Positions 1,042 to 43,674 are shown, numbered from the stretch's first letter. The stretch is 64,000 bases of DNA from Gammaproteobacteria bacterium (GCA_029245395.1 JAQWPL010000024.1:90887-154886); one strand, 5' to 3'. The notes: a model not told the origin generated them from the letters alone. A program made the numbers and translations.

Positions 1042-2580
1042 TTAGGGCGCGTTGCAGGAAAAATTTGCCGCATCATCAATACTGCCGGTTCCTGTAAAGG
1101 TCGCCACCTGTGGATGGGGGCACAAAGGCCGAGTCCGGGTGCCACCATTTTCAATAGAGCCCGAAATGATAATTCGCTCCGGTGCTACATCAGTATCAAC
1201 CCAGCGTTTTAATTCAGCACCTACATCAAATTCGCCAAGGGCGCCTTCCCAACCACAATGTTCCTTGTTGGGCACCATGAACAGACGCACCGATTCCTGG
1301 GCGCTCAGGGAGCCTATCGTATTCACAACACTGTTGTAGTAATCAATAGCGAGGTCTGGCGGGATATAAGTGTCATTCCAGCCTTCCCATAACAGGAGCT
1401 TACCCCCACTAGCCACAAATTCACTGATATCCGGGCTCAGGGCATTAACGACAAGATTTTCCGGTGCATCGGCAAGGGCGACATCTGTTGCGTAGTTGAC
1501 AGGATGCTCCTTGGAGTTCCAGCTCTCGTCCTTGAAGACAAAGTACTTGAAAAAGTTCTCGGATAACCTGAAAGGCGCGTCACCAGTCGTAGTTCGGGTC
1601 CAGGTGATCTCGCTGCCAGGTTGTGGCCCGGGAAAAATCTGTTGGTGGGTGAGCGGGTTTGTGGCGCCGGCATAGATTTTTCGAACTGCAGTCACCTGTG
1701 GGGCCGTCAGGCAGGATGCGCCATCAGTGCCTGCGGCACACTGGATTGATGCTGGATCAAATTTACAGAGGAGTGGATTTTCAAGCACACCATCAAGAAC
1801 CCTGTCGAGCACGTCACACTGCTGGATCACGGCATCATGAAGAACGACATATTTTTCCGGCGAGATGTAGCTAGCCTCATTCAGATGAGTTGCGTCCCAG
1901 TTCCACATCTGGTGAAAGATGTGGTGCGTTTTATCGGACATTCCAGTGATTGCTACTGCGTCATAGTCTCCAGGATAACGCTGTATCGCATTCTGGGCTG
2001 TGACTGCGCTACCGCCACAGCCGTTGATGAAAGAAAAAGCAGGGCCGCTGCCGTAATAAGCCGCCATGATGGCTTTTGCTTTAACCGGCACTTCATGGCC
2101 CGACCGATAGCCAAAATCAATCACTTTTTCAGGCTCTGTCAAAGCATAACTTGAGTCGCCGGCATGCCCGGTGTCACTTCCGGCTGTTGCATAACCTGCC
2201 CGTAGCGAGGTAGCCAAATCATTGTATGGAACAGACCCTCCGATACCAGAACTGCCCCGGCCCTCGAACGTGCCGTTCCAGCCGTTGGCTGGCAGCCAGG
2301 CTTCCATTTTAATGTCTGAGCTTGGCGTCGGTTTCACGGTTGCTGCCACGCGGCAGAAAGCGGGTAAATCAGCATAAGCAGCGGCATTACCAGTAGCGAG
2401 GCGAAATTGCCCAGCAGCAATATGCTCAGCCGCCGTAATGGTGGTATAGGGTAAGGAAAGGTCCGTAAGATTTTCACAGACTGCAGGGGCCTGCGCCGCC
2501 TGTACCCCTTGTACAAGCAGTGGAACGGATACCAGAAGTACCACACCTGGCAACATTATTTTTCCAGTGGATCGTTTCAC
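1042..2580 (-). CDS. Tannase/feruloyl esterase family alpha/beta hydrolase homologue, exported
   Basis: Family-typical CENLTDLSLPYTTITAAE near the N-terminus, then FINGCGGSAVTAQNAIQRYPGDYD, then EHCGWEG near the C-terminus. Signal peptide MLPGVVLLVSVPLLVQGVQAAQA. Start set at GTG 2580 behind AGGAGAGG; the track ORF extends to a TTG at 2619. Confidence 0.8.
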   Translation of the reverse strand: MKRSTGKIMLPGVVLLVSVPLLVQGVQAAQAPAVCENLTDLSLPYTTITAAEHIAAGQFRLATGNAAAYADLPAFCRVAATVKPTPSSDIKMEAWLPANGWNGTFEGRGSSGIGGSVPYNDLATSLRAGYATAGSDTGHAGDSSYALTEPEKVIDFGYRSGHEVPVKAKAIMAAYYGSGPAFSFINGCGGSAVTAQNAIQRYPGDYDAVAITGMSDKTHHIFHQMWNWDATHLNEASYISPEKYVVLHDAVIQQCDVLDRVLDGVLENPLLCKFDPASIQCAAGTDGASCLTAPQVTAVRKIYAGATNPLTHQQIFPGPQPGSEITWTRTTTGDAPFRLSENFFKYFVFKDESWNSKEHPVNYATDVALADAPENLVVNALSPDISEFVASGGKLLLWEGWNDTYIPPDLAIDYYNSVVNTIGSLSAQESVRLFMVPNKEHCGWEGALGEFDVGAELKRWVDTDVAPERIIISGSIENGGTRTRPLCPHPQVATFTGTGSIDDAANFSCNAP

Positions 2581-2878
2581 GTTTTCCTCTCCTATGTCGG
2601 CTTTTATGGCCAGCTTCAAGAATTTAGAAGGCGGTATAACTAATTATTTTTAATAAAATGTTTTATTTGAACAGTTAGTTCAATTCCGAGCCCTGAACCT
2701 AGCAGAATATAAAGAAATATACATATTTATTGATATCGGTAAAACAAAAGAAATGTAATTGGAATCTACTTTCTATGGTTTGCAGGCAAAATACAATAAG
2801 AAGCGCTGTCTACCCGATTGATCTTGGCGTTACTGTTAACGTAGACTATAAAGACAGCTACTCTGCAGAGGGAACAAT

Positions 2879-3274
2879 ATGAAAATCCTGACTACGGCCG
2901 CGATACTTCTGGGCTTGAGCTCATTGATCGCTACACCATCTCTTGTTTTGGCACACCATTCCGTCGGCGCCACGTTTGATCCGCAAGCAACAGTTACGCT
3001 GGAAGGCACCGTGACCAAAATTGACTGGTTCAATCCTCATATCTGGATATACATTACTGTTGATGGCAGCACGGAAGAATACCAGTGTGAAGGTTCCAGC
3101 CCGAACTCCTTGCGTCGGCGGGGCTGGTCCAAGGATTCTCTCAATCCAGGCGACCATGTTACAGTGGAGGGACTGAAGGCCAGGAATGACCCTTACAGTT
3201 GCTATGCCCGTTCCGTAAAACTTGCCGACGGTAAACAGCTATTTTCAGGAAACGCCTCGGAGCTTGGTCAATGA
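2879..3274 (+). CDS. Secreted N-module protein (DUF6152-like by recollection); predicted mature N-terminus HHS
   Basis: Signal peptide ending VLA then HHSVGATFD. Shared motifs WFNPHIWIY and LRRRGWSKDSLNPGDHVTVEG. Paralogous to 14821-15246 and to the N-terminal parts of 17338, 25915 and 38704. Confidence 0.85.
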   Translation: MKILTTAAILLGLSSLIATPSLVLAHHSVGATFDPQATVTLEGTVTKIDWFNPHIWIYITVDGSTEEYQCEGSSPNSLRRRGWSKDSLNPGDHVTVEGLKARNDPYSCYARSVKLADGKQLFSGNASELGQ

Positions 3275-4044
3275 GCAAACATGTCTTGAAAGCGATCACT
3301 TTGTCGGGCGCAGTGCTAACCCTCTGCACCCTGGTGTCGTCAGCAGCATACTCCCAGTCGCAGGACATTCCCCGGTTGGCCGACGGCAAGCCTGATTTCA
3401 ACGGCATCTGGGACCGTCCACGGGTTGGTAACATTACCAGGGATGTGCAGGGCTGCGGCTCTGGTAGCGTGGGATGCAGCTCGATATCATCCGGACCATT
3501 GGCATTCACGCCCGAAGGCCTGGCAGCTCATGAAGGCCCGAAAATAGATTATCCTGGCCGTTGCCTGCCCTGGGGTTACACCCGGGCTTACCATACAACC
3601 TACCCGATCATGTATGTGCAAACAGCAAAGGTTTTTGCGGTCCTGTTTGAATCGAATAACATCTTTCATATCGTGCCCACAGACGGCCGTGAGCATCCTC
3701 CTGAAGTCGAATCCACATGGATGGGCAAGTCATTCGGCCACTACGAAGGTGACACTCTGGTCATTGATTCCCGAGGGTTCAATGGCTTGTCCTGGATCGA
3801 CAACGGCGGCGAACATCCTGTCAGTGAAGAAATGCATATCACAGAACGTATCAGTCACATTGATGCCGACACCCTGCAATACCATATCACCCTCGAAGAT
3901 CCCAAGTTTTACTCCGAGCCCATAGTGAACACCCGGGTCTTCGTGCGAATGCCTGATGATACCGAACTCTATGAATACTGGTGCATGGAAAACAACAAGG
4001 CACTGATGGACGGTCTGCTTCCCGATACCATATTGACGGAGTAA
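3271..4044 (+). CDS. Secreted C-module protein of the same two-module family
   Basis: ATGA overlap with the upstream N-module gene. Signal peptide, then DGKPDFNGIWDRP, RCLPWGY, GKSFGHYEGDTLVIDSRGF, ITERISHIDADTLQYHITLEDP and EYWCMENN. These motifs recur in seven other copies. Confidence 0.85.
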   Translation: MSKHVLKAITLSGAVLTLCTLVSSAAYSQSQDIPRLADGKPDFNGIWDRPRVGNITRDVQGCGSGSVGCSSISSGPLAFTPEGLAAHEGPKIDYPGRCLPWGYTRAYHTTYPIMYVQTAKVFAVLFESNNIFHIVPTDGREHPPEVESTWMGKSFGHYEGDTLVIDSRGFNGLSWIDNGGEHPVSEEMHITERISHIDADTLQYHITLEDPKFYSEPIVNTRVFVRMPDDTELYEYWCMENNKALMDGLLPDTILTE

Positions 4045-4049
4045 CGGTC

Positions 4050-5021
4050 ATGACCATGAACAATCAATTCTGTCTGCTCCGGTCCATCCATTTCCGCCTC
4101 CTGGCAGCAGGACTGATTGTCAGTCTCTGGTCAGTGACCGCACCGGCTCAGGAAAATACTTCCTATTCAGACCCTGGCACGTTTCCGGTTCACAACATGG
4201 AGACCATCGCCCTGAAAGACAATCTCCGCGGCACCGAAGTCCTGGTTCGAGTGTACTACCCGGAAGGCGCAGGTCCGTTTCCTGTTATCGCTTTCTCTCA
4301 TATGAATGGTGGTAACAAGGATATGTTCAGTGAAATAGGCACGCATTGGGCCAGCCATGGTTTTGTGGCCGTGCATTCAAGTCATGATGATACTGGCGTC
4401 ACCATGGCCCCCAACGGTGGAGGCATGCAACCGTCGGAACAAAAGGTTCGCGACCGGTTGCGCGACGTAATCGTAGTCTTTGATGCGCTCGATCAAATCG
4501 AGCGCGATGTTCCCGCCCTGGCGGAAAAACTTGATCGTGAGAAGCTGGCTGTTGCGGGACACTCTTATGGCTCATTTATCTCATTTATTGCTGGCGGTGT
4601 GACCATCGATATTGGTGGCGAAACAAATACAAATCTCGGCGATTCCCGTGTCAAATGTATTCTGCCAATGTCACCTTCCGGACCTGGTGATTACGGATTG
4701 AGTGATGCAAGCTGGCGCAACCTGGCTATGCCAACGCTAATTTTTAACGGCACCAACGATGCGCGGGCCGGGCGTGCAGAAGACTGGCGTATGGAACCTT
4801 ACCGGTTGAGCCCCGAAGGTAACAAATTTCAAATTATTATCGAAGGTGCTACTCACCGTGAGTACGGTGGAGATATACCCGGTGATGCACCAAAATATGT
4901 CAAGGCTGCATCAGCGGCTTTCTTTGATTTCTGTCTGAATGGAACCGCTGAAGGGAAATCCTATCTACAAGGTGGTTTCGACGAATTTGCCGATGGTGCG
5001 GCGACGATCTCCTTTAAATAG
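4050..5021 (+). CDS. Exported alpha/beta hydrolase (dienelactone hydrolase / PAF-acetylhydrolase-like)
   Basis: Signal peptide ending TAPAQE; nucleophile elbow VAGHSYGSF (GxSxG). The track ORF starts at 3981 inside the upstream gene; ATG 4050 follows the upstream stop. Confidence 0.75.
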   Translation: MTMNNQFCLLRSIHFRLLAAGLIVSLWSVTAPAQENTSYSDPGTFPVHNMETIALKDNLRGTEVLVRVYYPEGAGPFPVIAFSHMNGGNKDMFSEIGTHWASHGFVAVHSSHDDTGVTMAPNGGGMQPSEQKVRDRLRDVIVVFDALDQIERDVPALAEKLDREKLAVAGHSYGSFISFIAGGVTIDIGGETNTNLGDSRVKCILPMSPSGPGDYGLSDASWRNLAMPTLIFNGTNDARAGRAEDWRMEPYRLSPEGNKFQIIIEGATHREYGGDIPGDAPKYVKAASAAFFDFCLNGTAEGKSYLQGGFDEFADGAATISFK

Positions 5022-5123
5022 CGAAATTTCGCTGCACAGTAATTGTAGCGAGTTCTGACAGGTACATTTCTTGTAGGTTGTATTTTGACCTATTCAATTA
5101 TCAAAATCGTTAAGGTACAAACC

Positions 5124-5870
5124 ATGAAAAAAATTAGCCTATCTTTTATAGCTGTATTACTGCTGTTATCAGGATCATTGCAGGCATTGACCCTTGCTGA
5201 ATTGAGTGCAGCACTGAGTAATTCCGACACTAGAGCCGAAGCTGATAAAGTCAGAGATGCTGGCCGCAAACCAGCTGAAGTAGTCAATTTTCTGGGTATA
5301 GAAGAAGGCATGACTGTCATTGATTTGGTCGCAGCTACTGGCTATTACACTGAAGTGTTGTCACATGCAGTAGGCGCGTCTGGCAAGGTGTATATGCAAA
5401 ACTCTCCAGCATCACTTACGGGTGACCGCGGAACGCGCACGGCGGCAGCAATTGACGCTCGGTTGGCCAATAATCGACTCGCCAATGTTGAAAGTTTGAA
5501 CCGGGATTTTGCAGATTTGGGATTATCACCTAACTCGATAGATGCAGCGATTATCGCTCTGGAAATACATGAGTTAACCAGATCCAGTGATCCAGATGCA
5601 GCCGGTAATTTTCTCGCCTATATTAGAACAGTGCTGAAACCTGGAGGAATACTTGGAGTTGTTGACCATGCGGGTAATCCTGGTAGTGATAATGGCGCTA
5701 TCCACCGCGCAGATGAAGAGCAGATTGTAGGGCTTGCTGAAGCTGTAGGTTTTAGTGTGGTTGGAACATCGGACCTATTGCGTATGCCAGAAGATGATCG
5801 TACAACGGCGGTTTTTGGTCCGGATATTCGTGGCAAAACTGATCGCTTCCTTTTGAAATTACAAAAGTAA
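5124..5870 (+). CDS. Class I SAM-dependent methyltransferase-like protein with an N-terminal signal peptide
   Basis: MKKISLSFIAVLLLLSGSLQA signal. VIDLVAATGYYTEVL resembles motif I and LKPGGILGVVDH the post-I/II region. ATG 5124 preferred over the track's TTG at 5085. Confidence 0.7.
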   Translation: MKKISLSFIAVLLLLSGSLQALTLAELSAALSNSDTRAEADKVRDAGRKPAEVVNFLGIEEGMTVIDLVAATGYYTEVLSHAVGASGKVYMQNSPASLTGDRGTRTAAAIDARLANNRLANVESLNRDFADLGLSPNSIDAAIIALEIHELTRSSDPDAAGNFLAYIRTVLKPGGILGVVDHAGNPGSDNGAIHRADEEQIVGLAEAVGFSVVGTSDLLRMPEDDRTTAVFGPDIRGKTDRFLLKLQK

Positions 5871-5891
5871 TTATTGGGCTGAAGCAGTTAA

Positions 5892-8129
5892 ATGGCACAG
5901 CAACCTCCTTCAATCAAACATACTCCGCTGACTGGTGACATTGCCCTGAACCGCCGTACTTTTATCAAACTCGGCGGCATCGCCGGTGGTGGTCTGGTGC
6001 TTGGTTTTACCCTTGGCGACAAGACCTGGGCCCAGGAGTCCGGTGATCCGCTAACCACGAATTACATCCAGATCCATCCAGATGGCAAGATAATTATCAT
6101 GGCAACACAGCCGGAAGTGGGTCAGGGCGTCAAAACCGCCTTTCCCATGCTGGTTGCCGAGGAGCTGGATGCGAACTGGGCCGATGTCGAGGTCCTGCAG
6201 TCTGAAATCGATGCCGGTCGATACGGCAGCCAGGCCGCTGCCGGTTCCCGTGGCACGCCAACCGTCTGGCTTCCCTTGCGGCAGGCAGGAGCCACTGCCA
6301 GGGCCATGCTGGTTGCCGCGGCAGCCATCCGTCTGGAGGTAGATGCCTCTGAGCTGCGCACACAAGACAGTAGCGTTTTCCACGATGCTTCCGACCGCAG
6401 TCTTTCCTACGCCGATCTGTCAGAACTGGCAGCGACCATGCCGATACCCGAGCCGTCATCTCTGCTTCTTAAGGAACGCGATGAGTGGCGCTTGATTGGC
6501 GGCAGTATCCCGGGGGTGGATAACACCAACATAGTCACCGGCAGCCCTCTTTTCGGTTTTGATCAGTTTCAGCCGGACATGCTCTATGCCAATTTTGTAA
6601 AAAGCCCCAGGGTCGGGGCGAAAGCCGAACTAGCTAATCTGGATTTCATCAAGACCCTTCCCGGCGTGGTTGACGCCTTCATTATGGAAGGCAGGGGTCT
6701 TCCTAATGACTATGTCCGGCGAGAACCTGCGATTCATTCCGGTGTGGTAGTAGTGGCCCGCTCTACCTGGAGCGCCATGAAGGCTGCTCGTCAGTTAGAA
6801 ATCCGCTGGGACAATAGCACCGCTGCATCGGATACCTGGACTGACCATGTGGCGACTGCCAGAACACTGGCCGGGAAACCCGGCCTGGAAACACTCAACG
6901 AGAAGGGGAGTGTGGACACTGTTTTTGACAGCGCTGACACAATAGCGGAAGGGTTTTATACCTATCCTTTTCTGGCCCATGCCAACCTTGAGCCGCAAAA
7001 CTGCACTGCCCGGGTTACCAATGACGGCATCGAGTTATGGGCGCCCACCCAGACTCCGCAGCGCGCCCTTACAGAACTTTCGGCGTTTTTCAATATTCCT
7101 GAGTCCAGTATTAATCTACATCAGATTCGCATCGGTGGTGGGTTCGGACGCCGGCTCGCCAATGACTATGTGGTAGAGGCCGCCGCCATCGCCGCCCGTT
7201 TTGATGTACCGGTAAAAGCTTTCTGGACCCGAGAAGATGATATGACCTTCGATTTCTACCGTCCCGGTGGTTTTCATTCCTTCAAGGCTGCCATTGACGG
7301 CGAAGGCAAACTAACTGCCTGGCAGGATCACTTCATTACCTTTGCTCGGTCTGGTTCCACTGAACCTCTGCGTACTGCCAACCTGCCGCCCGATGAATTT
7401 CCGGTGAGTGTGCTTGCCAATGCACGATTAACCCAGACCACTCTGGATTCCGGTATGCCGGCGGGCCCGATGCGCGCCCCTCGTTCCAATGCCATTGCTT
7501 TTGTCGTGGAATCTTTCCTGCATGAATGTGCAGTGGCTGCCAATCGCGACCATGTGGAATTTCTGCTGGAAGTGTTGGGTGAATCCCGCTGGCTTGATCC
7601 CGGTAATACGGGTTCACTAAACACCGAAAGGGCAGCATCTGTCATTCGCCTGGCCGCTGAAAAGGCTGACTGGGGCCGGCAGATGCCTGCTGGTCGCGCC
7701 CTTGGACTGGCTTTTCATTTCAGCCATGCCGGTCATTTCGCCCATGTAGCGGAGGTCAGTGTCAACGCTGGGAACCAGGTGACAATTCACAAGATTACTG
7801 TTGCCGGGGATATCGGTCCGATCATTAATATTAGTAGTGCCCACAACCAGGTTGAAGGCTGTGTGATTGATGCCATCAGCGCGCTTGGTCTGGAAATCAC
7901 GTTCAGAAATGGGCGGGTCGACCAGCAAAACTTCCACCAGTATCCCCTGGGCAGGATCGGCATCACACCGGAAATCGATATTCACTGGATTGAGTCTGAT
8001 TATAATCCAACAGGCCTGGGCGAACCGGCTTACCCACCTGTTATCCCGGCAGTAACCAATGCAATTTTTTCAGCCACGGGTCACCGGATACGAACGTTGC
8101 CGATCACTAAGGAAGGGTTTTCAGTTTAA
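5892..8129 (+). CDS. Molybdopterin-binding oxidoreductase large subunit (IorB / aldehyde oxidase-xanthine dehydrogenase family), Tat-exported
   Basis: Twin-arginine region NRRTFIKLGGIAGGG; IRIGGGFGRR motif; C-terminal [30 protein letters not shown]. Clear paralogue of 30174-32285. Confidence 0.85.
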   Translation: MAQQPPSIKHTPLTGDIALNRRTFIKLGGIAGGGLVLGFTLGDKTWAQESGDPLTTNYIQIHPDGKIIIMATQPEVGQGVKTAFPMLVAEELDANWADVEVLQSEIDAGRYGSQAAAGSRGTPTVWLPLRQAGATARAMLVAAAAIRLEVDASELRTQDSSVFHDASDRSLSYADLSELAATMPIPEPSSLLLKERDEWRLIGGSIPGVDNTNIVTGSPLFGFDQFQPDMLYANFVKSPRVGAKAELANLDFIKTLPGVVDAFIMEGRGLPNDYVRREPAIHSGVVVVARSTWSAMKAARQLEIRWDNSTAASDTWTDHVATARTLAGKPGLETLNEKGSVDTVFDSADTIAEGFYTYPFLAHANLEPQNCTARVTNDGIELWAPTQTPQRALTELSAFFNIPESSINLHQIRIGGGFGRRLANDYVVEAAAIAARFDVPVKAFWTREDDMTFDFYRPGGFHSFKAAIDGEGKLTAWQDHFITFARSGSTEPLRTANLPPDEFPVSVLANARLTQTTLDSGMPAGPMRAPRSNAIAFVVESFLHECAVAANRDHVEFLLEVLGESRWLDPGNTGSLNTERAASVIRLAAEKADWGRQMPAGRALGLAFHFSHAGHFAHVAEVSVNAGNQVTIHKITVAGDIGPIINISSAHNQVEGCVIDAISALGLEITFRNGRVDQQNFHQYPLGRIGITPEIDIHWIESDYNPTGLGEPAYPPVIPAVTNAIFSATGHRIRTLPITKEGFSV

Positions 8130-8843: not shown

Positions 8844-9210
8844 GGTTGACTGCGTGGTAGGTTTTCAAAAGTGAAATTAACCAGAAAATTATTCACTGAA
8901 AACCATTCTATTAAGAATGTGCGTCAGTCTATTCTCTTCAAAGACAACTTGAAAGCGGATGGGTTAATGCCGCGAAAGCGAAGCGACCACAGTTAATGAC
9001 TGCGGATTGCACTGCTCAAATCAAAGCGTGCAGAGTAAATTTAATATCCCATAGAAAGGTATACGTGCAATCGTCAGGCATCAAATAATCAATGCTCATA
9101 GCAATTACAGCTTTTGCCAGGTTATCAATTGCTGGACTACTCGGATTTTCCTGTTTATTCTTATTTGCTCATATTAAAAAAAATTCAGATAGCACGCGAG
9201 GATATTGCGT

Positions 9211-12200
9211 ATGAATAGCCGGACTCCCGGAGTAACTGTCTTAAACAATGAGGCAGAACCCCGCATAAAAGTGGCAGATCAAGCCACAATCGACGGCTGT
9301 GAAGCCGTGGCTCGTGTGGCCTACAAGGTCAATGAAGTCTGTATTATCTATCCAATTACCCCTGCCTCACCCATGGGTGAATATGCTGATCAATGGGCTG
9401 CGCAAGGAAAAACCAATATTTGGGGCGTAGTTCCTGATGTAGTTCAAATGCAGAGTGAGGCCGGCGCAGCAGGATCCGTGCATGGCGCGCTACAAACCGG
9501 CTCGCTGACCACAACATTTACGGCCTCCCAGGGGCTACTACTGATGATCCCCAATATGTACAAGATTGCGGGTGAACTCACTTCCACAGTAGCTCATATT
9601 GCCTCGCGCTCCCTTGCTGCCCAGGCCTTGTCAATTTTCGGAGATCACCAGGATGTCATGGCTGCACGGCAGACTGGCTTTGCCATGTTGTGTTCCAATT
9701 CAGTGCAAGAAGCCCAGGATTTTGCTCTCATCAGCCAGGCCGCGACGCTTGAAAGCCGTGTTCCCTTTGTACATTTTTTCGACGGATTTAGAACGTCCCA
9801 TGAGATCAATACCATTGATCTGGTGGATGACGAACAAATAGAAGGAATGATAGATCATAAGCGAATTCATGAGCACCGTGCCCGCGCCCTGAATCCAGAA
9901 AATCCCTTCATACGCGGTACAGCACAGAATCCAGATACTTACTTCCAGGCCCGGGAGACTGTTAACCCGTTCTATAACGCTATACCTAAAATTGTGCAAG
10001 ACCATATGGACCGCTTTGCTGGTTTGACTGGCAGGGAATATCAGGTGTGTGAATATTTCGGTGCGCCGGATGCAGAGAGGGTGATTGTCACAATGGGTTC
10101 CTCTTGTGAAGTGGTCAAGGAAACGCTCGACTATCTGGTGCTTTCCGGAGAGACCAAGCTAGGTGTGATTATTCCTCGCCTTTACCGCCCATTCCCCGGA
10201 AAAATGCTGGCCAGCATGATTCCTGCTACCTGCAAGACTATCGCAGTGCTTGATCGCACCAAGGAGCCCGGTGCAGGAGGAGAGCCACTATATAAGGATG
10301 TGGTCACTGCCCTGTTCGAAGCCCATACAGACGGCGAACTGGCCTGTGAGAGTATGCCGGTGATAACCGGTGGTCGTTATGGTCTGTCTTCCAAGGACTT
10401 TACGCCCGCCATGGTCAAGGGTGTATTTGATGAACTTGCCAAAGAGCGCCCCAAAAACCATTTCACTGTGGGCATTATTGATGACGTGACTCATACCAAT
10501 ATTGACTACGATCCCACTTTCATCGTCGAGCAACCAGGCGTTTATTCCGCCATGTTCTACGGACAGGGTGGAGACGGCACAGTGGGTTCCAATAAGAACA
10601 CTGTGAAGATCATTGGCAAGGCCGGTTCTCTCCAATCCCAGGCCTTCTTTTATTACGATTCTAAGAAAGCCGGTTCCCAAACCATTTCCCATCTGCGTTT
10701 TGGCCCCCGCAAAATCGAAGCACCGTACTACATTCAAAAAGCTGATTTCGTCGCCTGTCACCTGTTCAGTTATCTCTCCAAAACTGATGTTCTGGAATAT
10801 GCTGCGCCAGGTGCCACCTTTCTGGTTAACAGTACCCATGGCCCCGATGAAATCTGGGACAAGTTGCCCCGTGAAGCGCAGCGGGACATCATCGACAAAC
10901 AATTAAAATTTTATGTGATCGACGCCTATAACGTGGCGGGTGAGGCAGGTCTGGGCAGGCGTCTGAGTACCGTGATGCAGGCTTGTTTCTTTGCTATTTC
11001 CAGCGTACTGCGGCCGGACGAGGCGATTAAGAAAATCAAGGAAGAAATTCACAATACCTTTATCAAGAAAGGCGAGAAAATTGTCGAGATGAATTACGTA
11101 GCAGTGGATATGGCGCTGGCAAATATGCACAGAGTGGAGGTGCCGCAATTAATTACCAGCCTCTTCGATATGCCGCCTCCCGTCAGGGTAGGAGCACCCG
11201 AATTCGTGCGCAACGTGGTCGGACCGCAGATCGCTGGTAAGGGCGATCAGTTACCTGTGAGCATGCTGCCTGTAGACGGCACCTATCCGTCCGGTACCAC
11301 GGCCTGGGAAGTGAGTGATCTCACCCTGGAAGTTCCGGTTTGGGAACCCGATATCTGTGCTCAATGCGGCAATTGCGAAATCGTTTGTCCGCATGCCGTA
11401 ATACGAATGAAAACCTATGAACAGGATTCTCTGGAAGAGGCACCCGATGCATTCAAGTCAGTCCGGCTCAAGGGTCGAGGCATCGACCCCGATCAGCGCT
11501 ATACCTTGCAGGTCGCAGTGGATAATTGCACAGGTTGCGGGCTCTGTGTGGCCGCCTGTCCTGTGGACAGTCATCCCGATAAGCCGGGCATGAAGGCCAT
11601 CAACATGGCCTTAAAAGATCCCATTGTTGACGAGGAAAGAGAATCCTGGGATTTCTTCCAGACTCTGCCCCAGCGTGAACGCGGTGACCTCACCGGAATG
11701 CGTATGCGTGAAACGCAACTTATGGAACCTTTATTTGAATTCTCCGGGGCATGTGCAGGCTGTGGTGAGACCCCTTACCTCAAGCTGTTGACTCAGCTTC
11801 ACGGCGATCAATTGTTTGTTGCCAATGCTACTGGATGCTCGTCAATATTCGGTGGCAATCAGCCAACAACACCCTGGTCCAAGAATGCCGCAGGGCGCGG
11901 TCCTGCCTGGTCCAACTCACTGTTTGAGGATGATGCTGAGTTTGGCTATGGCTTCCGCGTGAGTCTGGACAAATTGCGCGATTATGCGCGTATGGCTCTG
12001 AAAGATCTGGCACCAACTGTGGGTGAAGGCCTGGTCACTGAGATCCTGACGGCGTCTCAGGAAAGCGGTACGCAGCTTGAAGCCCAGCGCGATCGAATCG
12101 TAGAGCTACGCAAACGTTTGGTGGGTACTCCTGATCCCAGGGCGTTGGATTTGCATGCACTTGCCGATCACTTACTTGACCGAGTCGTGTGGATCGTCGG

Positions 12201-12828
12201 TGGTGACGGCTGGGCTTATGACATTGGCTTTGGTGGTCTTGACCATGTACTGGCCAATGATCGGGATGTCAATATTCTGGTTATGGATACCGAGGTGTAC
12301 TCCAACACTGGCGGGCAAAATTCGAAATCCACGCCACGCGCTGCAACGGCAAAATTTGCTACAGGAGGAAAATCTGTGGCAAAGAAAGACATGGGCATGT
12401 TGGCCATTGATTACGGTCATGTCTATGTGGCACAAATAGCCTTCGGTTCCGATCCGAAGCAGACAGTTCGTGCCATGCAGGAAGCGGCAGCGCACAAGGG
12501 ACCGTCAATCATCATTGCTTACGCCACCTGTATCGCCCATGGCTTCGATCTGACTTATACGGTTGAACACATGAGATCCGCGGTGGACAGTGGTTACTGG
12601 CCACTTTATCGCTATGATCCCAATCTCGCCAAGTTAGGTCGCAACCCCATGCAACTCGATTCGGGTGAGCCCAACATAACTTTCAAAGATTATGCCATGT
12701 CAGAGAATCGCTACCGTTCCCTGGCGCGGGCCAACCCGGAACATGCAGACGAGCTCATGGATCTGGCCGAGGCCGATGTACTCAAACGCTGGCAGGCAGT
12801 AAAGCGTCTGGCTCGGGGAGTTGAATAA
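9211..12828 (+). CDS. nifJ: Pyruvate:ferredoxin (flavodoxin) oxidoreductase, single-polypeptide type
   Basis: About 1200 aa. AIYPITPASPMGE..MQSEAGAAGSVHGALQTGSLTTTFTASQGLLLMIPNMYKIAGEL; two ferredoxin motifs CAQCGNCEIVCP and CTGCGLCVAACP; TPP region GGDGWAYDIGFGGLDH. ATG 9211 behind GAGGA; the track starts at TTG 9205. Confidence 0.95.
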   Translation: MNSRTPGVTVLNNEAEPRIKVADQATIDGCEAVARVAYKVNEVCIIYPITPASPMGEYADQWAAQGKTNIWGVVPDVVQMQSEAGAAGSVHGALQTGSLTTTFTASQGLLLMIPNMYKIAGELTSTVAHIASRSLAAQALSIFGDHQDVMAARQTGFAMLCSNSVQEAQDFALISQAATLESRVPFVHFFDGFRTSHEINTIDLVDDEQIEGMIDHKRIHEHRARALNPENPFIRGTAQNPDTYFQARETVNPFYNAIPKIVQDHMDRFAGLTGREYQVCEYFGAPDAERVIVTMGSSCEVVKETLDYLVLSGETKLGVIIPRLYRPFPGKMLASMIPATCKTIAVLDRTKEPGAGGEPLYKDVVTALFEAHTDGELACESMPVITGGRYGLSSKDFTPAMVKGVFDELAKERPKNHFTVGIIDDVTHTNIDYDPTFIVEQPGVYSAMFYGQGGDGTVGSNKNTVKIIGKAGSLQSQAFFYYDSKKAGSQTISHLRFGPRKIEAPYYIQKADFVACHLFSYLSKTDVLEYAAPGATFLVNSTHGPDEIWDKLPREAQRDIIDKQLKFYVIDAYNVAGEAGLGRRLSTVMQACFFAISSVLRPDEAIKKIKEEIHNTFIKKGEKIVEMNYVAVDMALANMHRVEVPQLITSLFDMPPPVRVGAPEFVRNVVGPQIAGKGDQLPVSMLPVDGTYPSGTTAWEVSDLTLEVPVWEPDICAQCGNCEIVCPHAVIRMKTYEQDSLEEAPDAFKSVRLKGRGIDPDQRYTLQVAVDNCTGCGLCVAACPVDSHPDKPGMKAINMALKDPIVDEERESWDFFQTLPQRERGDLTGMRMRETQLMEPLFEFSGACAGCGETPYLKLLTQLHGDQLFVANATGCSSIFGGNQPTTPWSKNAAGRGPAWSNSLFEDDAEFGYGFRVSLDKLRDYARMALKDLAPTVGEGLVTEILTASQESGTQLEAQRDRIVELRKRLVGTPDPRALDLHALADHLLDRVVWIVGGDGWAYDIGFGGLDHVLANDRDVNILVMDTEVYSNTGGQNSKSTPRAATAKFATGGKSVAKKDMGMLAIDYGHVYVAQIAFGSDPKQTVRAMQEAAAHKGPSIIIAYATCIAHGFDLTYTVEHMRSAVDSGYWPLYRYDPNLAKLGRNPMQLDSGEPNITFKDYAMSENRYRSLARANPEHADELMDLAEADVLKRWQAVKRLARGVE

Positions 12829-12830
12829 AG

Positions 12831-14660
12831 ATGGAAGCTAATAAGAAAGAAGTAGCACGAAACGGCAAAGCGATACCACAAGGGCCTAATCGCCAGCCGC
12901 ATTTCTCTTTGTCACAGGAGCTCGGTGTGGCAAACCAGCCCAAGGATATGGACTGGCTCGACAAAAACATTCCTTGCCAGGCTGCCTGTCCCGCCCATAC
13001 CCGGATTCCTGATTACCTGGGCGAAATAAGTCTTGGCAATTACGACGCCGCTTATTTAATCAATTTGGTCGACAACGTGTTCCCCGCCGTGTTGGGCCGT
13101 GTCTGTTCTCGCCCTTGTGAAGATGTCTGCCGCCATGGCCGCGAGGGGCTTGGCGAACCGGTTGCTATTTGTTTTTCAAAACGTGCAGCGGCGGACCTGG
13201 GTAGCAACAAACTTGTTGTACTTGAGCCACTGTATCCCGAGACCGGCAAAACTGTCGCTATTATCGGTGGAGGTCCTGCAGGGCTTGCCGCAGCCAGGGA
13301 ACTGGCTCTGTTCGGGCACAAGTCAACAGTGTTCGAAAAATATTCAATACCTGGTGGCATGATGAACCAGGGTATTCCCGAATTTCGACTGCCACGAGAA
13401 ACTATTGACAAGGAAATCGATCAGATCCGCGAGTTGGGTGTGGAGATTCTTTGCAACCAGAACATTGGCAAGGACGGCGACACCACTATAGAAGAACTTT
13501 TGAAGTCACACGATGCCGTTGTTATTGCCGCCGGGACACTGTCACCAAATATTCTCGATCTGCCTGGCAAAGACAAGGGTGGCATCCTGCATGGACTTGA
13601 TTTTCTCCTGGAAGCAAACGAAACCGGAAAATCTGATATCGGCAAGAATGTCATTGTTGTGGGAGGAGGATTTACCGCCATGGACTGCGCCCGAACAGCC
13701 ATCCGCCTGGGCTCTCCATCCAGTGTCTTTTACCGGCGTTCGCGCGATGAAATGTCAGTGACGAAAGATGAGATCGATGAACTCATCCATGAAAAAATTC
13801 CTCTTGAGCTCATGGTTGGTCCGGTCTCCTATAACGGCGACGGTGATGTCAACAGCATGCGTTTCATCCGCAACGAGCTTGGGGAACCAGACGAAGGTGG
13901 CCGGCGCCGTCCGGTGGCAGTTGAAGGTAGTGAATTTGATGTGGATGTTGACACCATACTACTGGCTACAGGCCAGTGGCAGGACACCACCTGGCTGGAT
14001 GCATCAGTTGCTCCCAACGTGCTTGATAAAGATGGCTGGATTCCAGGCGGTTCACCCGTTACTACCAATCATCCGGGATTATTCCTGGCGGGGGATTATT
14101 CCATCGGCGCTTCGACTTTGATCCAGGCTATTGGTCACGCCAAGGAATGTGCGCGTTCAGTAGATGAATACCTTATGGGCGAGACGCGTAAAATGGATGT
14201 TGCCCAGATTGGCAACTCGTTACAAACTGGCCGTGTGCCCGAAATGGACGACATTCCGCGGCAGATAATCCCTACCATTGCTATCGAAGATCGTACCCTG
14301 CGCGCTGAAGTGGAAACAGGTTATGATCCGGAACTTGCCACAAAGGAAACCTTGCGCTGCTATCTGTGCCATTACAAATTTGAGATAGACAACGACTATT
14401 GTATTTATTGTGAAAAATGTCTCGATGTGAAACCTCACGAAAACTGCATCGTGCGCATTGATGATCTGGACTACGATGATGAAGATCGTATCGCCGGCTA
14501 CACGCGAGCGAAGGATCCGACTCCATTCAAATACAATCTTCTTTACATAGACCAGGATCAGTGCACTCGCTGCGGTCGTTGTGAATCAGTCTGCCCCGTG
14601 GAATGTATTTCCATTCAGAAAGTGACAAGGGATGTGACACGCCCGTGCGATGTTGACTAG
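12831..14660 (+). CDS. GltD-like NAD(P)H-dependent FAD oxidoreductase with C-terminal 4Fe-4S ferredoxin domain
   Basis: N-terminal Fe-S cysteines (CQAACPAH, CSRPCEDVC); dinucleotide fold VAIIGGGPAGLAAA and a second VIVVGGGFTAMD; C-terminal CIYCEKC and CTRCGRCESVCP. Starts 2 nt after the PFOR stop. Confidence 0.8.
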   Translation: MEANKKEVARNGKAIPQGPNRQPHFSLSQELGVANQPKDMDWLDKNIPCQAACPAHTRIPDYLGEISLGNYDAAYLINLVDNVFPAVLGRVCSRPCEDVCRHGREGLGEPVAICFSKRAAADLGSNKLVVLEPLYPETGKTVAIIGGGPAGLAAARELALFGHKSTVFEKYSIPGGMMNQGIPEFRLPRETIDKEIDQIRELGVEILCNQNIGKDGDTTIEELLKSHDAVVIAAGTLSPNILDLPGKDKGGILHGLDFLLEANETGKSDIGKNVIVVGGGFTAMDCARTAIRLGSPSSVFYRRSRDEMSVTKDEIDELIHEKIPLELMVGPVSYNGDGDVNSMRFIRNELGEPDEGGRRRPVAVEGSEFDVDVDTILLATGQWQDTTWLDASVAPNVLDKDGWIPGGSPVTTNHPGLFLAGDYSIGASTLIQAIGHAKECARSVDEYLMGETRKMDVAQIGNSLQTGRVPEMDDIPRQIIPTIAIEDRTLRAEVETGYDPELATKETLRCYLCHYKFEIDNDYCIYCEKCLDVKPHENCIVRIDDLDYDDEDRIAGYTRAKDPTPFKYNLLYIDQDQCTRCGRCESVCPVECISIQKVTRDVTRPCDVD

Positions 14661-14820: not shown

Positions 14821-15246
14821 TTACCTGGTTGGTGCCGCACCAACACCGTTAGAGCTCGCATTGAGTTCTGTGCCGTCGGGTAGCGTGATGGCACCACCGT
14901 TGGCCCGGTTCTCACCATCACGGGAACGATAGCCAAGGACGGTAACTTGCGTCCCGGTGGGCAGGGAGTTGCGATTCCAACCCCGTCGAATCAGTGCATT
15001 GGGGGCGCCGCCTTCAATTGCCCATTCCTGAACCTCACCACTTTCAGTGGTAACGTTGATATAAATGTAGGAATGCGGATTGGTAAATACCAGGCGTATG
15101 ACTTCACCTCGCAGTTGTATTGGCTGATTGATATCGAACTCAGACGAAAATGAATGGTGGGCAAAAACCGGAAACGTGGTTGCCATGCCTGACATAAAAA
15201 TTAGCACCATGATTTTTAATGCAGGAATGTTATCTATGCGTGGCAT
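14821..15246 (-). CDS. Secreted N-module protein (paralogue of 2879-3274)
   Basis: Signal peptide ending VFA then HHSFSSEFD; FTNPHSYIY; LIRRGWNRNSLPTGTQVTVLG. ATG 15246 behind AGAGGG; the track ORF extends to 15327 into the upstream gene. Confidence 0.8.
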   Translation of the reverse strand: MPRIDNIPALKIMVLIFMSGMATTFPVFAHHSFSSEFDINQPIQLRGEVIRLVFTNPHSYIYINVTTESGEVQEWAIEGGAPNALIRRGWNRNSLPTGTQVTVLGYRSRDGENRANGGAITLPDGTELNASSNGVGAAPTR

Positions 15247-15289: not shown

Positions 15290-16120
15290 TTACTCAGAAA
15301 TCGGTTCTTCGCTTTCCAGATCTCCATACATTAGCTCTTCGGCATATTCCACACAGTTAAACTCAAACAGTCGTGCGTCTGCTTCGATATTTCTGTACAG
15401 CGGCATTTCTATGGTCCAGGGGCGTGAAAATGTCATGGGATCATCGATAGTCGCCTGGTATTGCAGGGTGTTTGCGCTGATCGGGGTATAGCGTTCAGTA
15501 ACTACCATGGCATAACTGTGATGATTACCAGCCCGGTCGAGCCATGTTTGATCAATAGTGGAATTGATTTCTATAACCAGGGTATCACCGTCCCAGGAAC
15601 CATTTGATCTACCCATCCATAAATCAACCGGTGCAATCTCATGGTCATCCTCATTCATATACACAGGACGATTTGCGTTCGCATACGTGTAGCTGAAAGT
15701 CATGATGTCGCCTTCACCTTGCACGATCTGGAATGGATAAGGCATGTACGTGGCGCGGGGGAGCCCTGGCATAAAACAACTGGCTTCAGGGTCGGAGGCT
15801 GGCCAGCCGCTACGGTTTTCTTCACGTTTTGCCAGGGCCTCTGGTAAATAGGGGATTTCACCACCAACAACAACACTTTGCCCGGCGGGTATGGCGGCTA
15901 TTGCGCCAAGTTGCCAGAAATCATCAAGAGCTTCAGCGGAATGTGCTTCCAGGTTCCAGTGGGCTGTATTGGCGGCCTGCCAGATACCATTCAGATTGGG
16001 TTTGCCGCCAATGCGTGCAGGGCGGTCACGTTCTTGTGCCACTGCAAAAGCTGAAAATAGTATCAGGGCAAGGACAGCCGCGAGAAAAGTAGCGAGATTT
16101 GGTAGCAGTCGTGGTTTCAT
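15290..16120 (-). CDS. Secreted C-module protein (paralogue of 3271-4044)
   Basis: Signal peptide MKPRLLPNLATFLAAVLALILFSAFAVA; GGKPNLNGIWQAA, SCFMPGLP, GRSNGSWDGDTLVIE, VTERYTPISANTLQYQATIDDP, EFNCVEY. Confidence 0.8.
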   Translation of the reverse strand: MKPRLLPNLATFLAAVLALILFSAFAVAQERDRPARIGGKPNLNGIWQAANTAHWNLEAHSAEALDDFWQLGAIAAIPAGQSVVVGGEIPYLPEALAKREENRSGWPASDPEASCFMPGLPRATYMPYPFQIVQGEGDIMTFSYTYANANRPVYMNEDDHEIAPVDLWMGRSNGSWDGDTLVIEINSTIDQTWLDRAGNHHSYAMVVTERYTPISANTLQYQATIDDPMTFSRPWTIEMPLYRNIEADARLFEFNCVEYAEELMYGDLESEEPISE

Positions 16121-16166
16121 CTGACCTATTATAGACACACATGGCACTTTTGGGGGAGTAGGAATC

Positions 16167-17351
16167 ATGGTCTTTCACTCTAGTAATAATTCCAGTATTA
16201 ATGGAACAAGTAAGGTCACAAAGAAATCCTGTACCGTTCTAGGACTAACCCTTTTATCTATGGGGCTTGCTGTTGCCCAGCAGGCTATTTCGCAGAATGA
16301 TGATGCCCTGGTTCCTGCTGAACGTACTGCTGCAGCCGTCGTCGATTCCAGTTGGGAAGTGCCACGTTTTTCCTGGGGAGATCCAAATCTGGAAGGTACC
16401 TTCACCAGTCGTGACATGAGCGGCATACCCATGGCAAGGCCCAGTCAATTTGGTACACGCGATACATTGAATGCGGAAGAATATCGACAACGTGCCGCCG
16501 GTGGTTCGGGAGGGCTTGGCTCATTACGAGGCGGAGATGAGTTTGAAGGAGAAGCGCGACTGCAACTCAGTGCACTGGATTCCTCTGAAGTCGGTACGCG
16601 TGTCTTTGGCTATACCTCTTATATCATTGATCCCGCCGATGGCCGGATGCCGGCCCTGACTCCAGAAGGCGAGCAGCGTCAGTCTGCAAATCGGCGAGGT
16701 CAGGCGGCGGGTCCATTTTTTACCACGGCAGACTTTTCCTACTATGACCGTTGCATCACGCGCGGTGTCACAGGGTCGATTATGCCCTCCCTATATGGCG
16801 ATGCCATGCGCATTGTGCAGTCACCCACTGAAGTCGCTATTACCTATGAGATGCTCCATGAGACACGGATTATTCCCCTTGGTGAGGGGGCTTTTCCTGA
16901 TGCGCAAATCAAACAATATATGGGTGCGTCCATTGGCCACTTTGAAGGCGACACCTTGGAGATTGAAACCCGAAATTTAACCGACAAACTAAGGGTTGGT
17001 CGCATGCCCCACAGTGAGGACGCGGTGCTTACGGAACGAATCACGCGCATTGATCCGGACATGATCAACTACTCTGTAACCGTAGACGACCCGAGAACCT
17101 TTGTGAGTCCCTGGACTTTTCGCATGACGCTGACTACACAACCAGACTACGAAGTACTCGAATATTCCTGTCATGAAGGAAATTTCTTTATAGCCACTGC
17201 ACTCAGAGCAGAAAAGAACTATCAGGACAGTGTAGCCCAGGCCCTTGCCCGCGGTGAGGCGATCCCCGAACGTAATGTTGCAGGCGGTGGTTCTGACATC
17301 TATCTGGCGCCATCATCCGCTGAGGCTGTGGATATCAATGCTGATCAATAG
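16167..17351 (+). CDS. Secreted C-module protein with an extended N-terminal region
   Basis: Divergent from 16120. WGDPNLEGTFTSRD, GASIGHFEGDTLEIETRN, LTERITRIDPDMINYSVTVDDP, EYSCHEGN. Confidence 0.8.
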   Translation: MVFHSSNNSSINGTSKVTKKSCTVLGLTLLSMGLAVAQQAISQNDDALVPAERTAAAVVDSSWEVPRFSWGDPNLEGTFTSRDMSGIPMARPSQFGTRDTLNAEEYRQRAAGGSGGLGSLRGGDEFEGEARLQLSALDSSEVGTRVFGYTSYIIDPADGRMPALTPEGEQRQSANRRGQAAGPFFTTADFSYYDRCITRGVTGSIMPSLYGDAMRIVQSPTEVAITYEMLHETRIIPLGEGAFPDAQIKQYMGASIGHFEGDTLEIETRNLTDKLRVGRMPHSEDAVLTERITRIDPDMINYSVTVDDPRTFVSPWTFRMTLTTQPDYEVLEYSCHEGNFFIATALRAEKNYQDSVAQALARGEAIPERNVAGGGSDIYLAPSSAEAVDINADQ

Positions 17352-18483
17352 GCATTGTCTGGATAAATTATCCAGAATAACCAGCATGCTATTGCTTGCT
17401 CTCCTGAGCGCAAACCCGGCAATGGCACACCATGGTTTTGGCCGCTTCGATCCCACTACAGAGATCCAAATTGAAGGAACCCTGACTGATCTCGAATTTG
17501 TGAACCCGCATTCCTATGTCTATTTTGAAACAGTTGCCTCTGATGGCGCTGTCATGGAAATGGGTTGTGAGATGCGTGCTGCCACTGTGCTACGTCGATC
17601 GGGCTGGTCTTCTGAACTCTTTATCGAGGGGGCACACATCGTCGTAAACGGCAATCCCCATCGTGACGATCCGTCTTCATGCTATGTAGAGACATTGGCC
17701 ATTGGCGAGGCGCCAACCCTTGAACGTTACCAGCAGCTCAATGAGGATGATTCCGCACAGAGACCTGAACGGGCATTACGTTTGTCCGATGGCACGCCAA
17801 ACATTTCCGGTGACTGGGCGCAGGAACAATACCTGATGGCTCAACCCAAGGCGGTGGGTGCACGTGGCGTGTTGGTACCCAAGACTATGGTAGAAAGCAT
17901 AGAGTCCGGAGAGATTGATTCAGGGCAAGCACCGGGTGCAGGGTGGGGCGCGCGTCCCGTGACCCTGACCGCAGCAGGTGAAGCGGCGGCAGAGGTGTTA
18001 CGTAATGAGCCGCCGGAAGAAAACCCGCGTGTCACTTGTCAGATTACCAGCATCCTCTTCGACTGGGTCTTCGATGGCCCCATCAATCGCATCAGCCGGG
18101 AAGGGGACAGTATAACCATCGAATATGGACGTGACCTGGTACGTACCATAGTCATGAACATGGATAGCCATCCTGCCAATATTGCATTGAGCAGAAGCGG
18201 GCATTCAATAGGCCGATGGGAAGACGATACTCTGATTGTGAATACTGTTGGCTTTTTACCAGGCAGACTTGCTGGTAACGTGCCCCACAGTGATCAATTG
18301 CATATCACTGAGCGTTTCACGTTACAAAGTGACCGGCTGAATCGGGTGGTATTACAGAGAGAGTTTCAGGCTGAGGATGCTGTTTACTTTACTGATTTGT
18401 ATTCTGGTAACGATAATGTCCTGCTTGCGGATGCGCCATTTGCTGTTGATGAATGCAAAGAACTTGCATTCGAATACAAATAA
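17338..18483 (+). CDS. Secreted fused N-module + C-module protein
   Basis: Signal ending AMA then HHGFGRFD; FVNPHSYVY; LRRSGWSSE. C-part: DGTPNISGDWAQE, GHSIGRWEDDTLIVNTVGF, ITERFTLQ, VDECKE. Overlaps the upstream stop by 14 nt; the track ORF starts at 17245. Confidence 0.75.
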   Translation: MLINRHCLDKLSRITSMLLLALLSANPAMAHHGFGRFDPTTEIQIEGTLTDLEFVNPHSYVYFETVASDGAVMEMGCEMRAATVLRRSGWSSELFIEGAHIVVNGNPHRDDPSSCYVETLAIGEAPTLERYQQLNEDDSAQRPERALRLSDGTPNISGDWAQEQYLMAQPKAVGARGVLVPKTMVESIESGEIDSGQAPGAGWGARPVTLTAAGEAAAEVLRNEPPEENPRVTCQITSILFDWVFDGPINRISREGDSITIEYGRDLVRTIVMNMDSHPANIALSRSGHSIGRWEDDTLIVNTVGFLPGRLAGNVPHSDQLHITERFTLQSDRLNRVVLQREFQAEDAVYFTDLYSGNDNVLLADAPFAVDECKELAFEYK

Positions 18484-23473: not shown

Positions 23474-23502
23474 TACTGATCCCTTGGGTTGATTCATTTG
23501 TT

Positions 23503-24564: not shown

Positions 24565-24574
24565 AGGTGAGTTC

Positions 24575-32869: not shown

Positions 32870-33143
32870 TTCTTCCCCTTTATATGTCGTTGTCACTTGT
32901 TGAAACTTTCTGCCAGCAATGAGTAATCAGGTGATAATCATTTCACGAAATCCAATTCCATACTATGTGGCCCTGATTTCCATCTGAAATTGTTCAAAAA
33001 ACAGTTGGGCCCTAGTATAAATTCAATCCTGGTCTTGGTGATCTCGAAGAATTTTTGCCAATCGGGACGTCACCAGGGTCTTTGACGCTCTTCGATTGTG
33101 ATATAACAGGCCTGAATGGGATAGGCGAGGAAGTAAAAACACC

Positions 33144-42299: not shown

Positions 42300-42371
42300 G
42301 GGCTGTGTACACTATGACCCGACATATAGACATATATAGAACAGAGAAAAAAGAACAGAGCAAAAGCTGAT

Positions 42372-43655: not shown

Positions 43656-43674
43656 ACATGGAGGAGACTCTGTC

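Follow-up and report, generated by a model that had tools for sequence, protein, structure and literature searches.

DUF6152 as a candidate N-terminal-histidine metal centre on an exported OB-fold domain with a conserved barrel partner

In a 64,000-nucleotide stretch of DNA from a Gammaproteobacteria bacterium (GCA_029245395.1 JAQWPL010000024.1:90887-154886), in the following called the window, we found five copies of a small exported domain, the N-module, all of which match the Pfam family DUF6152 (PF19649; 57.9-111.1 bits, gathering score 27). Each copy has a signal peptide that is directly followed by two histidines, and a third histidine is located further downstream in an (N/M)-P-His motif. 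N-modules and a second type of module, the C-module, nearly always form a conserved two-part unit, adjacent or fused. Our hypothesis, which builds on sequence comparisons and structure predictions, is that DUF6152 is a well-supported candidate for an N-terminal-histidine metal centre in this two-protein unit, on a fold that would be new for such chemistry, the oligonucleotide/oligosaccharide-binding (OB) barrel. To our knowledge, N-terminal-histidine metal centres, such as those of lytic polysaccharide monooxygenases (LPMOs), the CuB site found in particulate methane monooxygenase (pMMO) and several copper chaperones, have so far been known only on beta-sandwich or cupredoxin-type folds. If the hypothesis is correct, the OB fold would extend the range of structures that bear these centres, and DUF6152 would be, by the count of PMC10656224, only a second kind of OB protein devoted to a metal.

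Mature N-termini and conservation of the DUF6152 family

Two of the five N-modules are encoded by stand-alone genes. N-module a (2879-3274, plus strand, 131 amino acids, identified as an open reading frame (ORF) with its translation, Pfam DUF6152 E 2e-24) is identical to MDG2175977.1, annotated as 'DUF6152 family protein' in a gammaproteobacterial metagenome-assembled genome (MAG). Its signal peptide is encoded at 2879-2953, followed by His1-His2 at 2954-2959 (context VLA/HHSVGATFD, with the slash at the presumed cleavage point) and the NPH motif at 3032-3040; the codon for Glu46 is located at 3089-3091 and a pair of cysteines at 3086-3088 and 3200-3202. The residue numbers used here (His1, His2, His29, Glu46, Trp58) are those of mature module a. 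N-module b (14821-15246, minus strand, 141 amino acids, Pfam DUF6152 E 2.8e-32, VFA/HHSFSSEFD) has its His-His at 15154-15159 and NPH at 15073-15081; it starts with the ATG at 15246, which has a GAGGG ribosome-binding site, and the mechanically called ORF extends to 15327. The remaining three N-modules are fused to a C-module, all on the plus strand: protein c (17338-18483, 381 amino acids, AMA/HHGFGRFD, His-His 17428-17433, NPH 17503-17511), protein d (25915-26946, 343 amino acids, AIA/HHSHANLN, His-His 25999-26004, MPH 26074-26082) and protein e (38704-39834, 376 amino acids, VLA/HHSFAAEFD, His-His 38785-38790, NPH 38863-38871). Pairwise identity among the five N-modules is 31-37%, and the alanine at -1, His1, His2, P-H, G-W and several glycines are invariant in all of them. 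An NCBIfam scan of the N-modules of the window yielded no matches.

All five precursors have a purine-rich ribosome-binding site and an n-region containing lysine or arginine, followed by an h-region free of charged residues and by a c-region that ends in (V/A)-x-A right before His-His, with small residues at -3 and -1. The sequence-only reading of the window had reported an AxA-type signal peptidase site directly before HH in every N-module, and this site is indeed seen in five of five, at or near the positions where it had been placed. The downstream (N/M)PH described in the same reading is likewise present in all five modules, with its histidine 27-28 residues past His1, and it is a family-wide feature. 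The mature proteins thus described probably begin at His1-His2 after the signal peptidase I cut, a position deduced from cleavage rules and from the point where conservation begins. It is an established rule that a histidine exposed by signal-peptide cleavage is a metal chelate whatever the fold, and the signal peptide followed by an invariant His-His in DUF6152 fits this rule (PMC12537917). That HH might simply be required by the signal peptidase was rejected, since positions +1 and +2 are not so constrained and the internal DUF6152 domains described below also begin at HH.

With a profile built from the five N-modules and sequences clustered at 50% identity, at least 15,706 clusters were matched at E <= 1e-3 (8,556 at E <= 1e-10). 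For this very large family, a literature search for DUF6152 or PF19649 found no paper, a search joining the histidine brace with the OB fold found nothing, and PDB sequence searches with single sequences and profiles (N-module and N plus C) returned only chance-level matches and no solved relative. Genome matches were mostly in Acidobacteriota (Bryobacterales, Vicinamibacterales, Terriglobia) and gammaproteobacterial MAGs; the family occurs in abundance in Acidobacteriota of soil and in Gammaproteobacteria of soil and sea, and its carriers are nearly all uncultured.

In 485 non-redundant sequences with a mean pairwise identity of 42% (down to about 15%), His1, His2, Gly18, Pro28 and His29 are 100% conserved, followed by Glu46 (97%, otherwise Gln), Trp58 (92%, otherwise Phe), Ser3 (91%) and Asp9 (91%, otherwise Asn), so that the conservation of His2, Glu46 and Trp58 is close to that of His1 and of the NPH histidine. 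Because this collection had mostly been gathered by searches biased to high scores or to the HH and NPH motifs, an independent metagenome sample was drawn with a DNA pattern that encodes the motif E-x-G-x-P-N-x-L-x-R-x-G-W from the middle of the domain and excludes HH and NPH. In this sample 122 of 123 matches were DUF6152, and all untruncated members (119/119) contained both A/HH and PH; the residue at -1 was alanine in 113/118, and HH was located at a median of 24 residues from the upstream Met. The motif is stricter than in the N-terminal-histidine families that have already been validated experimentally: the N-terminal histidine is conserved to about 100% in DUF6152, compared to 79% in DUF4198 and 65% in DUF6702 (PMC12537917).

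Predicted fold and a proposed metal site

The AlphaFold2 model of mature module a, calculated with 127 homologues, has a predicted local distance difference test score (pLDDT) of 88.2 and a predicted template modelling score (pTM) of 0.81. Its topology is b1(8-25)-b2(30-36)-b3(42-46)-helix(50-55)-b4(68-76)-b5(82-90), and the N-module is accordingly predicted to be an exported OB-fold domain of roughly 105 residues. The top 50 Foldseek matches in the PDB were OB domains (anticodon-binding domain of LysRS, Stn1, SSB/Rim1, TiaS) with query TM-scores of 0.47-0.59, and LPMO, CopC, PmoB or cupredoxin structures were not among these 50. In the model, NPH is placed in the loop L12 and Glu46 closes strand 3. 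Cys45 and Cys83 are the top-ranking coevolving pair (rank 1), and the cysteine pair is present in about half of the members, including a and c; together with the signal peptides this points to an oxidising compartment and fits a disulfide in an exported protein. A nucleic-acid-binding OB protein was considered and rejected: the fold is alike, but all members are exported and many have the disulfide, and the Pfam tRNA_anti-codon match to the N-module reaches only E 0.21.

Three independent computational lines (loss of the motif in internal copies, coevolution and a residue switch in one clade) indirectly connect the His-His of the N-terminus with the histidine of NPH. Eight tandem proteins (P0126, P0127, P0130, P0135, P0142, P0161, P0164 and P0166) carry a second, internal DUF6152 domain, which starts exactly at the HH position. 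H1-H2-H29 is intact in none of the eight internal domains, versus about 385 of 393 N-terminal domains (Fisher p = 8e-13): three internal domains have HH together with an exchange of His29 to Arg, one has HH together with Asn, and four have no HH (one of those keeps PH). The loss in eight of eight internal copies suggests that the triad decays without a free N-terminus, and the degenerate second domains may be pseudo-sites in which the arginine fills the space of the metal.

Mean-field direct coupling analysis (DCA) was carried out with 456 sequences (effective number 261), a depth at which couplings are indicative and not proof. The top pairs reproduce the strand ladders of the OB fold and the Cys45-Cys83 disulfide. 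Pairs that connect the N-terminal segment with the NPH loop and its neighbours are 7-31 (rank 12), 8-27 (rank 19), 3-58 (rank 21) and 8-31 (rank 26); in addition, 30-47 is coupled (rank 2), and 46-58 in a smaller run. Taken together, these couplings would chain H1/H2, H29, E46 and W58 into one cluster. Pairs among invariant columns, which have identical scores, were discarded as pseudocount artefacts.

The third observation comes from a clade of 115 sequences of the d type, in which Phe4 is changed to His, Asn27 to Met, Ser49 to His and Leu53 to Met in a concerted manner. The switched positions are located in the N-terminal segment, in L12 and in the loop from strand 3 to the helix, and these are the elements that also bear H1/H2, H29 and Glu46. 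Protein d of the window is a member of this His/Met-rich clade and its mature start is His-His-Ser-His; at position 49 it has Asn, not His. His/Met-rich ligand sets are typical of periplasmic copper sites (CopC, PcoC, CusF).

What is shown are the motifs, the predicted fold, the pairing of the modules and their gene contexts; from this evidence we infer the clustering of the ligands, the binding of a metal, its identity and the role of the N-modules. The balance tips, if only slightly, towards a mononuclear metal site formed by the mature His1-His2 and His29, with Glu46 and Trp58 in the first or second shell, which is located on the ligand face of the OB barrel and works with the C-module barrel. 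Signal peptidase I would cut after A-x-A and leave His1-His2 at the mature start, where the alpha-amine and the imidazole of His1 would bind one transition-metal ion. His2 and/or His29 of L12 would also coordinate this ion, resulting in a histidine-brace-like N3 or N4 site that would be nearest in ligand count to the CuB site of pMMO. Glu46, at the end of strand 3, and Trp58 might contribute to the first or second shell, and the site would lie on the canonical ligand-binding face of the barrel. The unit of N- and C-module would act in the periplasm, on or alongside enzymes for organic substrates such as esterases, molybdenum hydroxylases and pyrroloquinoline quinone (PQQ) dehydrogenases. As candidate metal, copper is weakly favoured ahead of nickel, zinc and iron because of the analogy with known sites and because of the His/Met clade. 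Of the copper histidine brace suggested by the sequence-only reading, the brace-like centre is backed by the signal peptide followed by the invariant HH and by three lines tying HH to NPH, whereas the OB fold departs from it and copper is only weakly indicated.

Several points weigh against such a site. What speaks most strongly against a brace being obligatory are four internal domains in which HHSY is retained although a free amine and His29 are both missing; His-His thus has some value without a brace. A rule-based scan of positions -3 and -1 gave three to eight candidate cleavage sites per precursor and was not discriminating, so that the cleavage position rests on family conservation; the conservation counts, in turn, cover a small share of the family, with most of the weaker of the 15,706 clusters outside them. 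The first ten residues are modelled at a pLDDT of 71-74 only, in the model of module a as well as in that of the fused protein d. The exchanges of Asp9 to Asn (7%) and of Glu46 to Gln (2%) in the 485 sequences suit hydrogen bonding as well as ligation, and the His/Met change in the d clade may represent one evolutionary event. Finally, genes for copper, nickel or zinc homeostasis were found neither in the 64-kb window nor among 102 neighbouring ORFs at other loci.

Known metal sites and alternative explanations

The concept has precedents in the histidine brace, in YcnI with its mono-histidine brace and in 'signal-strapped' families of diverse folds (PMC10952591, PMC8424229, PMC12537917). DUF6152 resembles LPMOs (AA9-AA17), CopC, the CuB site of PmoB, Bim1 and X325 in that the signal peptide ends before a conserved histidine and a further histidine follows 27-28 residues on. 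With H1/H2/H29 it would have the same number of donors as the three-histidine CuB site of pMMO, and, as in brace proteins, a conserved carboxylate and an aromatic residue are found near the proposed site. However, DUF6152 is predicted to be an OB barrel and not an immunoglobulin-like/fibronectin type III or cupredoxin-like sandwich, its second histidine is adjacent in sequence (His1-His2), and, unlike LPMOs, it lacks a flat face for the binding of polysaccharides as well as a CAZy context. Since the predicted fold is an OB barrel, membership of DUF6152 in the LPMO, CopC, PmoB, X325 or YcnI families was ruled out.

YcnI (DUF1775) likewise obtains its N-terminal histidine by signal-peptide cleavage; its ligands are His1 and a glutamate, and a conserved tryptophan is located beside the metal (PMC8424229). 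DUF6152 has a comparable set with the invariant H1, E46 (97%) and W58 (92%), which are coupled in the DCA. YcnI, however, is a membrane-tethered protein with a cupredoxin fold, encoded in the copper-regulated ycnKJI operon, whereas DUF6152 has an OB fold, two extra invariant histidines, a beta-barrel partner and no copper operon.

An N-terminal histidine after signal-peptide cleavage has correctly predicted metalloproteins on four unrelated folds; among them, the site of DUF4198 can prefer nickel, and DUF6702 is predicted to use His1/His28/His32 (PMC12537917), a spacing that resembles H1...H29 of DUF6152. These families were recognised by the reasoning that is applied here, a conserved histidine behind the signal peptide of a domain of unknown function. 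DUF4198, DUF6702, Ang-1 and Ang-2 are beta-sandwiches with sequences unrelated to the OB domain of DUF6152, and they are found with TonB/NikR genes or HupE/UreJ permeases, whereas catabolic enzymes and the C-module accompany DUF6152. Neither that paper nor its supplements mention DUF6152, and the N-modules gave no Pfam match to the DUF4198, DUF6702 or anglerase families at E up to 10.

CusF and SilF, which have an internal His-Trp-Met-Met site for Cu(I)/Ag(I), are described as the only proteins with an OB fold that serve for nothing but metal binding (PMC10656224). Like them, the N-module is a small periplasmic five-stranded OB barrel with histidine (plus methionine in the d clade) and tryptophan. 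Their site is internal and they are encoded in cus/sil efflux operons, in contrast to DUF6152, which would use H1, H2 and H29 and has no M-x-M motif. CusF and SilF show no Pfam cross-match to the N-modules and are absent from the top 50 Foldseek matches; a relationship to CusF was rejected because ligands and gene context differ.

Within the proposed metal site, a non-catalytic role would be that of a carrier or sequestering protein that passes copper, nickel or zinc on to periplasmic enzymes of the neighbourhood or to a transporter, as CopC, YcnI, DUF6702 and the 'anglerases' do. Three of the four N-terminal-histidine families were assigned to transport or sequestration and not to catalysis (PMC12537917), and SilF and CusF show that OB folds can serve as dedicated periplasmic metal chaperones (PMC10656224). 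Moreover, several recurrent neighbours of DUF6152 are periplasmic enzymes that depend on a metal or a cofactor (PQQ dehydrogenases, metallo-beta-lactamase-fold proteins, MauG-like peroxidases), which could be recipients in such a scheme. We nevertheless consider this role unlikely: metal transporter, regulator or efflux genes were found beside none of the loci examined, the recurring partner is the C-module barrel and not a permease, and the number of paralogues, five N-modules within 64 kb here and several in single genomes elsewhere, is more in keeping with substrate-specific functions than with homeostasis. The lack of metal-homeostasis neighbours together with this high paralogy suggests a role linked to substrates or redox chemistry and not to the homeostasis of metals.

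A somewhat less probable alternative is that no metal is bound at all and that His1, His2, His29, Glu46 and Trp58 form an organic-ligand or catalytic pocket on the ligand face of the OB barrel. Candidate ligands are anionic aromatic acids, sugars, quinone cofactors and tetrapyrroles, the hydrophobic part of which would be held by the C-module barrel. That face is classically where OB folds take up oligonucleotides, oligosaccharides and small ligands (PMC10656224), the C-module barrel has weak calycin-type matches, the contexts are catabolic (tannase, PETase-like and carboxylesterases, molybdenum hydroxylases, TctABC transporter), and HHSY is retained in internal domains, which have no free amine. 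But such a pocket leaves unexplained why the histidine pair forms the very first mature residues in about 100% of the members, why the triad has decayed in eight of eight internal copies and why two methionines and two histidines were added around the site in one clade. The strict invariance is also hard to square with many paralogues in varied catabolic contexts.

It might also be that DUF6152 and the C-module are a widespread and so far unrecognised class of bacterial periplasmic copper oxidases or peroxygenases with a brace-type copper on an OB fold, which we regard as rather improbable. The lipocalin-like barrel would then present small hydrophobic or aromatic substrates, for instance aromatic esters and lignin- or plastic-derived compounds, and neighbouring PQQ dehydrogenases or cytochromes would supply the reducing electrons. 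PQQ-dependent dehydrogenases are said to supply electrons to fungal LPMOs.

The least probable explanation, and a very unlikely one, is a structural role, with the His-His segment as a plug that is hydrogen-bonded to the NPH loop, Glu46 and Trp58 and stabilises the barrel or docks the C-module: the coevolution that packs the N-terminal segment on the barrel, the fixed N-C interface implied by the pTM of 0.88 for fused protein d, the Asp9/Asn and Glu46/Gln swaps expected of hydrogen-bonding residues and the Arg in place of His29 in three internal domains that keep HH, where a charged side chain could occupy the same space, agree with it, but such contacts rarely demand three invariant histidines at a mean identity of 42% (down to about 15%), N-modules without a nearby C-module keep the motif, and the His/Met enrichment of the d clade is chemically specific.

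The C-module partner and the genomic neighbourhood

C-module a (3271-4044, plus strand, 257 amino acids, C-module hidden Markov model (HMM) E 5e-103) has its own signal peptide, and its start codon and the stop codon of N-module a overlap in the sequence ATGA, an arrangement that suggests translational coupling. C-module b (15290-16168, minus strand, 292 amino acids, C-module HMM), also with its own signal peptide, is located upstream of N-module b on the same strand, resulting in the order C then N. Two further homologues in the window contain no DUF6152 domain. One of them (16167-17351, plus strand, 394 amino acids, C-module HMM E 1e-24) has an N-terminal region of about 170 residues of no recognised kind; the other (23503-24603, minus strand, 366 amino acids, C-module HMM E 3e-32) has a C-terminal extension of about 120 residues and is flanked by Rieske VanA-like and metallo-beta-lactamase-fold genes. 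These two orphans show that the C-module family is broader than the N-C pair.

The C-module, with about 250 amino acids, has no Pfam, NCBIfam or PDB sequence match. In the AlphaFold model of the fused protein d (pLDDT 93.2, pTM 0.88), it is an up-and-down barrel of ten strands preceded by a short helical region, and the pTM value implies a fixed arrangement of the two domains. Foldseek with this model gave no significant match for the C-module and weak hints at calycin-type proteins (lipocalin, cellular retinol-binding protein (CRBP), avidin, BFA1, DUF3598).

At 71 of 80 genome loci carrying N-modules a C-module was found within 5 kb. A C-module on the same strand is located within 300 bp in 64 of 99 N-module instances and within 1.5 kb in 15 more (79/99), with both gene orders being observed; in 11 of the 99 there is no C-module nearby, and the histidine motif is kept there. 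A C-module from soil Acidobacteria shares 34% identity with C-module a (E 1e-47).

The window encodes a tannase/feruloyl esterase, a PETase/dienelactone-hydrolase-like esterase, a carboxylesterase, two IorB-type molybdenum hydroxylases with a 2Fe-2S subunit, a Rieske VanA-like oxygenase, a metallo-beta-lactamase-fold protein, TctCAB transporter genes and a DUF1592/DUF1552 pair. The region 1042-8129 contains a tannase-family esterase, N-module a, C-module a, the PETase/dienelactone-hydrolase-like esterase and an IorB-type molybdenum hydroxylase with a Tat-like RRTFIK motif, and this gene order is repeated in an unrelated metagenome contig (L001 6063-12523). This set of genes may be an aromatic-ester catabolic cluster; the tannase family is the family of MHETase. 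At other loci, PQQ dehydrogenases are the most frequent neighbours (6 of 102 flanking ORFs), followed by beta-lactamase-type esterases, 2Fe-2S subunits and metallo-beta-lactamase-fold proteins; MauG-like peroxidases and GSDH occur too. If the proposed site is catalytic, the presence of several copies in differing contexts beside esterases, molybdenum hydroxylases and PQQ dehydrogenases could indicate a new oxidative step, located in the periplasm, in the degradation of aromatic or ester compounds. Genes for resistance-nodulation-division (RND) or CusCBA systems were not found next to the modules in the window. The genomic company had initially been taken to fit an exported oxidative or metal-handling role; the neighbours are catabolic or periplasmic redox enzymes, and neither the window nor the 102 neighbouring ORFs contain metal-handling genes.

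DUF6152 and C-module genes recur beside metallo-beta-lactamase-fold genes, as in the window (22619-23497, minus strand) and in a further locus (L009 11509-12459), and at the locus of P0090 from the Joint Genome Institute (JGI) a 410-amino-acid protein fuses DUF6152 to a Lactamase_B domain. In the operon of module a, an ORF between the esterase and the molybdenum hydroxylase (5085-5870, plus strand; MKKISLSFIAVLLLLSGSLQALTLAE) resembles class-I S-adenosylmethionine (SAM)-dependent methyltransferases and has an apparent Sec signal peptide; an exported SAM-dependent methyltransferase would be odd. Directly downstream of e, the region 39864-48208 (plus strand) encodes a DUF1592/1588/1585/1587/1595 'PSD/PSCyt' protein, a DUF1552 (HXXSHH) protein, a 565-amino-acid ankyrin-repeat protein and a G8/CEMIP beta-helix protein, a string of exported uncharacterised proteins that is unusual for a gammaproteobacterium. 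At 9205-14660 (plus strand), a 1207-amino-acid protein of the pyruvate:ferredoxin-oxidoreductase type is followed by a GltD-like Fe-S flavoprotein, amid oxygen-dependent enzymes. An ORF of 106 amino acids at 32576-32896 (minus strand) contains only an FAD/NAD(P)-binding Rossmann motif and may be a gene fragment or pseudogene.

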